From Escherichia phage Antha: 64,000 nt of DNA. Below, piece after piece: positions 28,653 through 29,780 of the stretch (the first letter of the stretch is position 1; every line of letters starts with the position of its first letter). The notes under the pieces were generated by a model, which ran no database searches, was not told where the DNA came from, and saw nothing but the letters and a program-made list of their open reading frames with translations. The stretch is taken from sequence record PP925826.1, one strand, 5' to 3'. The position numbers and the translations under genes were made by a program.

Positions 28653-29780
28653 TTAAAACACACTTGCCAAAGTTGCACCATTGGTGATAGTTGGTTCCAG
28701 AACAATACGGAAAGAATCTTCTGGATCATCACTAAACACAACGATTTTACCGCCTGTGATAAGATCTGCTTTCATTTTTGTCGCATTCAATGGAATTCGA
28801 GCATCGCCTTCATCATCAAAAACCACGTAAGAGCTATTAGCAAGGGCTTCTTTAGAATCTGCATCACTTGGAGATGACAAGTACACGTCTAGTGTGCACG
28901 AGCCACCTAAAAAGATTGCAGGTGTAAAGTTATGCCAACTAGATACCCAGCTAACTTTCTGAAGTTTCCCATTAATAACAACACTGCTGATATCCCATTT
29001 ATTACCACCACCTAAAGAAACGCCCATCATAGAGATGCATTCTTTAAAGGATAAATCAGGGTAGAAATTAAGTTCTTCTACTATACCTTGGATCACATCA
29101 AAGGACAACTCTAAACTTACATCCCAAAGTCTTTGGAAATTATCAAAGTGTGCTTTGTTATCCAGGTTTTTATCTAAATAGTCAATCATAGTTTCTAGTG
29201 AGATTTTATCATAATTAAAATTATAAAACACACGACTAGGACGATTTAAAAAGAATTCAGAGATAAAACCACTGTTTTTAGTCAGAATAAACAGTTTATT
29301 ACCACTGCCAGTACCATCTAACAAAGTGAGAAGTGCTTCTTGATCTTGTTTCTTCTCATACACTTTATCAAACTCGTCAAAAATAATCACTGCTTTGTCG
29401 GTGATCTTGCTAATAAGTTCAATGAAATTAGCATCACTGTAGGCTTGAGTAACCATAATAGTTGGAATACCTTCTTCTACAAGGTCACGACTAATGAGTT
29501 TGGCTAACATAGTTTTACCACTGCCCTTAGTTCCTGTCAGAAGCAAGCCTGTGTTTTTACCTTGTGCACTCCGGCGATGGAATGTACGAATAACGTGATT
29601 TGCTCGTTTTTCTGTTTCACCATACAGAACATCCGGTACACCTGTTAGATTACCACGGCTTAAAAAATAATTGCCAAGGGGATCACGACTAACAGTATAG
29701 AATCCAGGTGGAAGATAGTTAGATTCCACGCCCATATCTTTATTTACACTTACAACATCACCATAAATCGTGTATTTCAT
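28653..29780 (-). CDS. P-loop AAA-type ATPase (paralog of 44544-45704)
   Basis: Walker A GTKGSGKT, Walker B IIFDEFDK, LFILTKN, NRPSR; collinear similarity to 44544-45704. Confidence 0.65.
   Translation of the reverse strand: MKYTIYGDVVSVNKDMGVESNYLPPGFYTVSRDPLGNYFLSRGNLTGVPDVLYGETEKRANHVIRTFHRRSAQGKNTGLLLTGTKGSGKTMLAKLISRDLVEEGIPTIMVTQAYSDANFIELISKITDKAVIIFDEFDKVYEKKQDQEALLTLLDGTGSGNKLFILTKNSGFISEFFLNRPSRVFYNFNYDKISLETMIDYLDKNLDNKAHFDNFQRLWDVSLELSFDVIQGIVEELNFYPDLSFKECISMMGVSLGGGNKWDISSVVINGKLQKVSWVSSWHNFTPAIFLGGSCTLDVYLSSPSDADSKEALANSSYVVFDDEGDARIPLNATKMKADLITGGKIVVFSDDPEDSFRIVLEPTITNGATLASVF

Follow-up and report, generated by a model that had tools for sequence, protein, structure and literature searches.

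Two old, diverged paralogous AAA ATPases of phage family PHROG 2376 in Escherichia phage Antha and its relatives

Why should one phage keep two versions of the same ATPase, on opposite strands and 15 kb apart? We addressed this question in a 64,000-nucleotide stretch of Escherichia phage Antha (sequence record PP925826.1; hereafter, the window, with positions counted from its first letter). An initial annotation of this stretch had described two genes in it as diverged paralogous AAA-type ATPases:

28653-29780, minus strand: copy 1, AAA ATPase, PHROG 2376; 375 amino acids (aa), 41.7 kDa, isoelectric point (pI) 4.9; PF00004, 38.9 bits
44544-45704, plus strand: copy 2, AAA ATPase, PHROG 2376; 386 aa, 43.4 kDa, pI 4.9; PF00004, 29.4 bits

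The described coordinates and lengths were exact, and both proteins passed the PF00004 gathering cut-off of 21.2 bits. The two are true, old and diverged paralogs. We consider it moderately likely that they are active, soluble ring ATPases of the classical AAA clade that remodel different protein targets, and that they stem from an old duplication within their own phage lineage.

Paralogy is evident from direct comparison of the two proteins. BLASTP aligned residues 3-256 of copy 1 with residues 2-253 of copy 2 at 47% identity and 70% positives, with two gapped positions (E = 1e-81). The similarity spans the N-terminus, the AAA module and the lid, and so extends far past the P-loop, an outcome on which the initial annotation had made its claim depend. 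The same annotation's "similar C-terminal domains" hold only in the sense of remote homology: BLASTP found nothing between the copies beyond residue ~256, but a comparison of the C-domains of the two ortholog groups with hhalign gave a probability of 81.5% (E = 1.1e-5, 15% identity, 103 columns). Because this match is remote and the strands and helices come in the same order in both predicted structures, we regard the C-domains as homologous yet very diverged.

The catalytic motifs are collinear in the two proteins. Walker A, Walker B, TKN and NRPSR, all named in the initial annotation, were found at matching positions (aa of copy 1/copy 2): GTKGSGKT at 83/80, DEFDK at 135/132, LLTLLDG at 150/147, LTKN at 166/163 and NRPSR at 179/176. 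The corresponding sites in the window, including the second region of homology (SRH), are:

29511-29534, minus strand: copy 1 Walker A
29433-29450, minus strand: copy 1 pore-loop-1 position (T-Q-A-Y114-S-D)
29364-29378, minus strand: copy 1 Walker B DEFDK
29232-29285, minus strand: copy 1 sensor-1 LTKN through SRH NRPSR
44781-44804, plus strand: copy 2 Walker A
44865-44882, plus strand: copy 2 pore-loop-1 position (G-S-A-F-N-G)
44937-44951, plus strand: copy 2 Walker B
45030-45083, plus strand: copy 2 sensor-1 through SRH

Walker B reads (V/I)I(I/M)(F/I)DEFDK across both copies. Six residues, K89, D135, E136, N169, R180 and R183, are invariant in the sets of 77 and 71 diverse homologs, and all six are present in both copies; judged from their sequences, both proteins keep the complete catalytic set. 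Across the family the SRH segment is R-P-(G/S)-R, and "LTKN...NRPSR" aligns with "GATN...LRPGR" of p97 D2. The pore-loop column at position 114, which aligns with "WFG" of p97 D2 and reads Y-S-D in copy 1, is aromatic in 64 of the 77 homologs and is followed two positions on by Gly (52 homologs) or Asp (19). At the lid, an invariant F227-D228 ("SFD" or "NFD") occupies the place of the classical AAA G-A-D, an assignment made by inspection only, as the search alignments covered residues 76-184.

We built single-chain AlphaFold2 (AF2) models from alignments of 77 sequences for copy 1 and 71 sequences for copy 2, with mean values of 91 and 85.9, respectively, in the predicted local distance difference test (pLDDT). 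Both models have a common layout, consisting of a five-strand N-terminal beta-domain of ~45 aa, a linker, the AAA core, a four-helix lid and a beta-rich C-domain of ~120-130 aa, which maps to the window as follows:

29616-29780, minus strand: copy 1 N-terminal five-strand beta-domain and linker, aa 1-55 (DSSP on the AF2 model)
29205-29615, minus strand: copy 1 AAA alpha/beta core, aa 56-192 (motif positions, family invariants and p97 D2 alignment)
29013-29204, minus strand: copy 1 four-helix lid, aa 193-256 (AF2 helices 195-252)
28656-29012, minus strand: copy 1 C-terminal beta-rich domain, aa 257-375, acidic (pI 4.5; AF2)
44700-45110, plus strand: copy 2 AAA alpha/beta core, aa 53-189
45303-45701, plus strand: copy 2 C-terminal beta-rich domain, aa 254-386, acidic (AF2)

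The pair Y53-G54, which closes the N-domain linker of copy 1, is invariant across the family. The N-, lid and C-domains are acidic in both proteins, which, together with the overall pI of 4.9, gives no pointer to nucleic-acid binding, and neither protein contains a transmembrane or hydrophobic segment. Residues 201-291 of copy 1 (window ~28908-29180), covering the lid and the start of the C-domain, gave weak phmmer matches in the PDB to the influenza NS1 effector domain (E = 8e-4 to 5e-3); these disappeared when the family profile was used and were judged spurious.

Both proteins can be assigned to PHROG 2376 and to the classical AAA clade, but to no narrower group. The phrog_2376 profile (363 columns) matched residues 1-367 of copy 1 over its columns 1-357 (E = 7.8e-108) and residues 1-376 of copy 2 over columns 2-359 (E = 3.6e-104). 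The family is large: at E <= 1e-30 its profile matched at least 3,341 clusters (50% identity) among 1.84 billion representatives, and nearly all of the 150 best matches were 350-400 aa long and aligned end-to-end. Foldseek searches of BFVD aligned ~380-400 columns with phage homologs of 19-36% identity (TM-score 0.6-0.78). Since fold alignments are this long at such low identity, the whole architecture is conserved, with the N- and C-domains being features of the family. Named members come from phages of Escherichia, Klebsiella, Salmonella (7-11), Aeromonas, Acinetobacter, Proteus, Pseudomonas, Lactococcus (949 group), Lactobacillus, Enterococcus, Bacillus, Staphylococcus (6ec), Microbacterium and Agrobacterium (Atu_ph07), and the family extends to jumbo phages (BF, GAP32, XbC2 and Yen9-04) and crAss-like phages; examples are phAPEC8 G377_gp014, Phi92_gp190, Salmonella phage 7-11 gp125, Serratia phage BF gp545, Lactococcus phage 949 ORF82 and Staphylococcus phage 6ec ORF94. 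The window proteins share the length, motif set and three-domain fold of PHROG 2376 and differ only in that this phage lineage has two members.

One metagenomic member of 727 aa (P0274) carries a LAGLIDADG/Hom_end intein (PF05204, E = 3.6e-11) inside Walker A ("GEKGSGK", intein, "TQLARL"). Its extra length is thus an intein insertion, and we rejected the idea that it is a tandem fusion of two ATPases. Inteins usually occupy conserved, functionally important sites of core enzymes. We found no published function for any PHROG 2376 member in the literature covered, which did not include the phi92 genome paper (PMC3457257).

Among characterized AAA proteins, the nearest relatives are p97/Cdc48 D2 by sequence and the AAA module of BCS1 by fold. 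The best sequence-profile matches were Cdc48/p97 D2, VAT, AFG2/Drg1 and NVL/Rix7 (E = 3e-13 to 1e-8), which were also among the top fold matches, and the aligned features comprise Walker A, the aromatic-x-Gly of the pore loop, Walker B, the LLTxxDG helix, the sensor-1 Asn and the R-P-G/S-R segment. This sequence alignment is limited to residues ~76-184; p97-type proteins have tandem D1-D2 modules, whereas the phage proteins have a single AAA module, and no counterpart was detected for the phage five-strand N-domain or the C-terminal beta-domain. BCS1 was the top fold match at 17-19% identity, with a small margin over Trip13, NSF and NVL, and was absent from the 60 best listed PDB sequence-profile matches of the family profile, which included p97, VAT, AFG2 and NVL. 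Unlike mitochondrial BCS1 and the BCS1-like ATPases of giant viruses, the phage proteins have neither a BCS1_N domain (PF08740; no match even at E <= 1) nor a transmembrane anchor, and their N-terminus is the five-strand beta-domain of the AF2 models. GenBank labels for the two genes in related phages vary among "ATPase", "hypothetical protein", "FtsH-like protease" and "putative ATPase or Zn metalloprotease". The AAA module does resemble that of FtsH at the fold level, but neither copy has a Peptidase_M41 match, an HExxH motif or transmembrane helices, and the two protease labels are unsupported.

Sequence divergence is distributed unevenly along the proteins. Between the paralogs, identity is 55% in the core and 45% in the lid but 27% in the N-domain and 24% in the C-domain. 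Orthologs repeat this pattern at closer range: copy 2 and its Klebsiella-phage ortholog are 81, 93, 89 and 47% identical in the N-domain, core, lid and C-domain, respectively, and copy 1 and its ortholog on a 151.5-kb contig are 73, 87, 73 and 34% identical. Orthologs of copy 1 show C-domain identities of 34-68% against core identities of 69-87%, and copy 2 orthologs whose AAA cores are 82-93% identical have C-domains that are only 39-47% identical. Among four within-genus orthologs of each copy, all eight variable positions of copy 2 fall in the C-domain (34% of the protein) and both variable positions of copy 1 in the N-domain. The motor is conserved and the peripheral domains evolve fastest, plausibly the pattern expected if these domains choose the substrate or partner. 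The complete catalytic sets and the concentration of divergence in the N- and C-domains, plausible sites of target recognition, fit the "specialised remodelling" of the initial annotation.

The distribution of the two types across phages points to an old event. The region surrounding the genes is ~99% identical to Escherichia phages VEcB, phi92 and alia and to the BASEL phages EmilieFrey and PaulScherrer, members of the genus Justusliebigvirus (phi92/VEcB-like) in the subfamily Stephanstirmvirinae; copy 2 is Phi92_gp190 (99.5% identity). At >= 95% identity, 55 phage records contain copy 1 and 54 contain copy 2. At 60-80% identity the copy-1 type occurs in 77 records of a wider group that includes Phapecoctavirus, and the copy-2 type is confined to the 54 records and five others. 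Genomes of the phAPEC8 type have one ATPase gene, 65% identical to copy 1 and 43% identical to copy 2, and their site syntenic to copy 2 reads nrdD-nrdG-63aa-201aa-HAD-PRTase, with no ATPase. Both types occur together in Klebsiella phage phi1_175008 and in several metagenomic contigs of ~150 kb; among the 80 best loci on viral contigs, only three contigs have two copies, all from the phi92/phAPEC8-like lineage. The duplication to which the initial annotation referred is real, but it is not particular to one phage: the pair is fixed in the whole genus and in related Klebsiella phages, and the family of copy 1 numbers thousands of members among large phages. In a bootstrapped neighbour-joining tree, distance-based and computed from 251 conserved columns, copy 1 formed a clade with support of 95 and copy 2 a clade with support of 100; the two joined, together with a few intermediate lineages, with support of 79, and jumbo-phage homologs formed a separate clade (100). 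Neither gene differs from the window in GC content. These results fit, as their simplest reading, an old duplication inside the ~150-kb phi92/phAPEC8-like lineage, after which Phapecoctavirus lost copy 2.

Two observations on database records emerged from the same searches. Two Herelleviridae-like Lactobacillus phages, LpeD (MF787246) and SAC12B (MK504446), each gave two tblastn matches to the ATPase, which may mean that the family has also been duplicated independently elsewhere. GenBank record MG065656 ("Campylobacter phage C3") and other "Campylobacter phage" records show 99.5-99.7% protein identity to E. coli Justusliebigvirus genes; probably, the Campylobacter jejuni host label on these records is wrong or the phages are contaminants.

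We propose that each protein would assemble into a ring, by analogy with characterized classical AAA proteins, and would hydrolyze ATP at the subunit interfaces with the two SRH arginines acting in trans. Such a ring would take hold of a protein substrate, or pull on it, via a central pore lined by an aromatic residue (Y114 in copy 1, F111 in copy 2), and the fast-evolving N- and C-domains would select the substrate or partner. Because the motor has been kept and the peripheral domains have diverged, the paralogs are most likely separate machines, each with its own targets. Both genes lie in non-structural arms, devoted to replication and nucleotide metabolism, that leave a divergent intergenic region and from which they would be expressed, with their timing predicted from that setting.

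Several points weigh against this proposal. The beta2-alpha2 segment that carries the pore loop is ~7 residues shorter than in p97 D2, and copy 1 has Asp at the site where most family members have Gly, so canonical threading is not assured. The ring state is an analogy pure and simple, and BCS1, the top fold match, is heptameric and moves folded proteins instead of threading them. Fast change in the C-domain could reflect relaxed constraint rather than the tracking of a target. As for the origin of the pair, the bootstrap value of 79 for the joint clade is modest for a distance tree of 251 columns, and exchange between related phages cannot be told apart from duplication. The literature yielded no expression, interaction, knockout or essentiality (CRISPRi-ART or transposon sequencing) data for the family.

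The genomic setting bears on what the targets might be. Mapped onto the window, the curated annotation of EmilieFrey gives two transcription arms that diverge near 31.8 kb. The short leftward arm runs from six small open reading frames (ORFs) through copy 1, its seventh gene, to the CapR/T5orf172 and NADAR genes. The long arm reaches copy 2 after ~12.7 kb, in the order UvrD, nrdD, nrdG, ATPase, 67-aa protein, HAD, PRTase and Macro, with a primase/helicase and a DNA polymerase later in the arm. The neighbours that the initial annotation had named, NADAR and T5orf172 for copy 1 and nrdDG for copy 2, are all in place, the domain match for T5orf172 being marginal:

27589-28578, minus strand: CapR+T5orf172 protein, directly downstream of copy 1; T5orf172 match of 21.5 bits against a cut-off of 20
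27037-27588, minus strand: NADAR protein (125 bits), after CapR+T5orf172
42215-42237, plus strand: terminator-like hairpin just upstream of nrdD, 9-bp stem, twin of that at 45711-45732
42257-44056, plus strand: nrdD, upstream of copy 2
44053-44523, plus strand: nrdG, directly upstream of copy 2
45711-45732, plus strand: terminator-like hairpin 7 nt past the copy 2 stop, 9-bp stem with 5 GC pairs, T-rich tail
within 45739-48327, plus strand: 67-aa protein (phrog_17780), downstream of copy 2
46094-46768, plus strand: HAD hydrolase
46761-47618, plus strand: PRTase_3 ComF-like protein
47611-48327, plus strand: Macro domain protein (PHROG 335)

Copy 2 is the last gene of an nrdD-nrdG-ATPase unit. 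The stems of both hairpins begin AAAG, a T-rich tail follows each, and the pair brackets the three genes, although the hairpins come from a consensus scan in which the number of sites in the region did not exceed the shuffle expectation; a scan for sigma70-like promoters likewise gave no more sites than expected from shuffling. A functional link between copy 2 and nrdDG was rejected, as neither Klebsiella phage phi1_175008 nor any other context of the family shows this linkage. The block at 45739-48327 is conserved in phi1_175008 and also in Phapecoctavirus, there without the ATPase. Shortly past the Macro gene, the long arm encodes a TerC-family integral membrane protein (48884-49861, plus strand; Pfam, 133 bits). 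On the copy 1 side, phAPEC8 keeps the order of ATPase then "endonuclease"; the CapR+T5orf172 protein varies in length (329 aa here, 465 aa in alia and 394 aa in phAPEC8), and megablast alignments of its region are split in two in several relatives. ARAGORN found no tRNA genes in the 64-kb window, and the phi92 record places a "hypothetical tRNA" under gp190. Elsewhere, tRNA genes lie near the homolog in three unrelated phages, flanking it in Serratia phage BF and Lactococcus phage 949 and ~2.3 kb upstream of it in Salmonella phage 7-11.

Homologs in other phages sit among small early ORFs (7-11, 949 and phAPEC8) or in replication/recombination modules (6ec and cr60_1), and never, in the contexts examined, among structural genes. 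We surveyed their neighbours more broadly by clustering the ORFs within 3 kb of 80 diverse homologs on viral contigs. The recurring neighbours were rIIA (16 loci), rIIB (13), a macro protein from PHROG 335, to which that of the window also belongs (12), a GDSL hydrolase (10), NAMPT (10) and Nudix (9). A conserved upstream membrane-protein partner was rejected as a candidate, since membrane proteins occurred in four of eight contexts and were not homologous to one another.

This setting gives some substance to the possibility, unlikely in our view, that the proteins are counter-defence or host-takeover unfoldases, each paralog dismantling a different host immune or stress complex tracked by its C-domain, with the genes residing in islands that also provide ADP-ribose removal, NAD+ salvage and rII counter-defence functions. 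Each paralog adjoins ADP-ribose- or NAD-related genes, with CapR/T5orf172 and NADAR following copy 1 and HAD, PRTase_3 and Macro following copy 2. Such a role would also suit the recurrence of rIIA, rIIB, macro, NAMPT and Nudix genes near homologs, the macro gene taking at least four different positions relative to the ATPase; the rapid evolution of the C-domain even inside the genus; the dispensing with copy 2 by the sister genus; and the Salmonella phage 7-11 homolog, which lies among its small early ORFs beside an Srd-like anti-sigma decoy. When ATPases are grouped at 50% identity, however, all of the recurring neighbours trace to one or two independent lineages, about two for macro and one for NAMPT and Nudix, so the association with NAD+/ADP-ribose genes is suggestive but not established, and it may be no more than shared synteny of an early or auxiliary region. 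The support for the counter-defence role raised by the initial annotation is confined to context, namely the neighbouring NADAR, Macro, NAD-salvage and rII genes here and in one large environmental lineage, and the proteins themselves matched no known defence or anti-defence family. They are 14% identical to the TRIP13/Pch2-like Cap6 (PDB 6p8v) of the cyclic-oligonucleotide-based antiphage signalling system (CBASS); PADLOC gave no match above noise, none to Cap6/TRIP13 or any CBASS component (best, mad8 at 16.9 bits), defence and NCBIfam libraries returned noise-level P-loop matches only, and the neighbours examined encode no HORMA or CD-NTase partner. An architecture that is stable over thousands of phages of Gram-positive and Gram-negative hosts looks more like that of a housekeeping function than of a participant in an arms race, and the P-loop intein of P0274 is again typical of conserved core enzymes. 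In BASEL phenotyping, moreover, phi92-like phages were not unusually resistant to restriction-modification systems (PMC8594841).

A bolder version of this idea, which we regard as decidedly improbable, is that PHROG 2376 is a family of phage unfoldases that pull apart host immune or stress effectors of NAD+/ADP-ribose signalling, with the C-domain recognizing the target and the two paralogs neutralizing two host systems. If the family did target NAD+/ADP-ribose-linked effectors, its repeated occurrence next to NADAR, Macro, NAMPT/Nudix and rIIA/rIIB would be accounted for, and the proteins would be the first phage-encoded, ATP-driven "anti-defence disassemblases".

Somewhat less probable than a counter-defence role in general is that of a replication or recombination accessory ATPase that loads or remodels a helicase, clamp or recombination machinery. 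The gene of Staphylococcus phage 6ec lies between RNase H/RecJ and a Holliday-junction resolvase/PhoH, and that of crAss-like cr60_1 between a primase/resolvase and Mre11/exonuclease; the arm of copy 2 carries the UvrD helicase, nrdDG, primase/helicase and DNA polymerase genes; and AT-rich, iteron-like repeats lie just past the arm of copy 1. Some homologs are named "DnaC", "DNA replication protein" or "clamp loader" in databases, and hidden Markov models of clamp-loader and DnaC-like PHROGs match weakly (E = 1e-8 to 1e-6), as does Hda. The loader-type matches are far below family cut-offs, though (Hda, 29.8 against 194.8 bits; IstB, 19.9 against 200 bits). The two-arginine SRH and the best sequence and fold neighbours are those of classical protein remodellers, not of the clamp-loader or initiator clades, and every non-core domain is acidic. 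Remodelling of replication proteins would in any case still be protein remodelling, different in target rather than in mechanism.

The repeats themselves occupy an AT-rich non-coding segment beyond NADAR (26496-26838), with three direct repeats of ~70-79 nt (26618-26838, 65-72% identity) and three 29-nt repeats (26496-26594). In phage alia the corresponding segment is annotated as "repeat_region". The repeats could be iterons, an origin or a promoter array.

Rather than forming separate machines, the paralogs might co-assemble in one hetero-oligomeric or stacked ring, as do Pex1/Pex6 or the Rpt subunits, which we hold to be highly improbable. Both copies are co-retained in every near-identical genome, and because the interface elements, namely the SRH arginines and Walker motifs, are identical in both, mixed interfaces would be chemically possible. 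Yet a single copy, which must function without a partner, is all that most phages have, those of the sister genus Phapecoctavirus among them, and the two genes of the window are on opposite strands in separate transcription units. Unlike many obligate hetero-oligomers, neither copy shows catalytic degeneration, and the one apparent double-length member of the family is, as noted, an intein insertion and no fusion.

Least probable of all is a BCS1-like virion-assembly chaperone or translocase that moves folded proteins at the membrane during head assembly, given the missing BCS1_N domain and transmembrane segment, the marginal fold lead of BCS1 together with its absence from the best sequence-profile matches, the consistently non-structural contexts, and adjacent membrane proteins that are mutually non-homologous and missing in half of the contexts. 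An assembly role has been proposed for "BCS1 orthologs" in jumbo phages by Iyer et al. (PMC7824862), who gave no accession by which those proteins could be matched to PHROG 2376.

We therefore return to two classical-clade remodellers with separate targets as the reading we favour. The pair itself consists of lineage-specific paralogs in an already catalogued phage AAA family, an annotation-level observation and not a new kind of system. The family to which they belong, PHROG 2376, is among the more widespread uncharacterized enzymes of large virulent phages, and its classical AAA motor, flanked by N- and C-domains specific to phages, implies that infection includes an ATP-driven step of protein remodelling not yet seen in any model phage. 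As tractable E. coli phages with two diverged versions of the protein, the phi92-like phages (BASEL Bas60-62) would offer a convenient system in which to discover its substrates.

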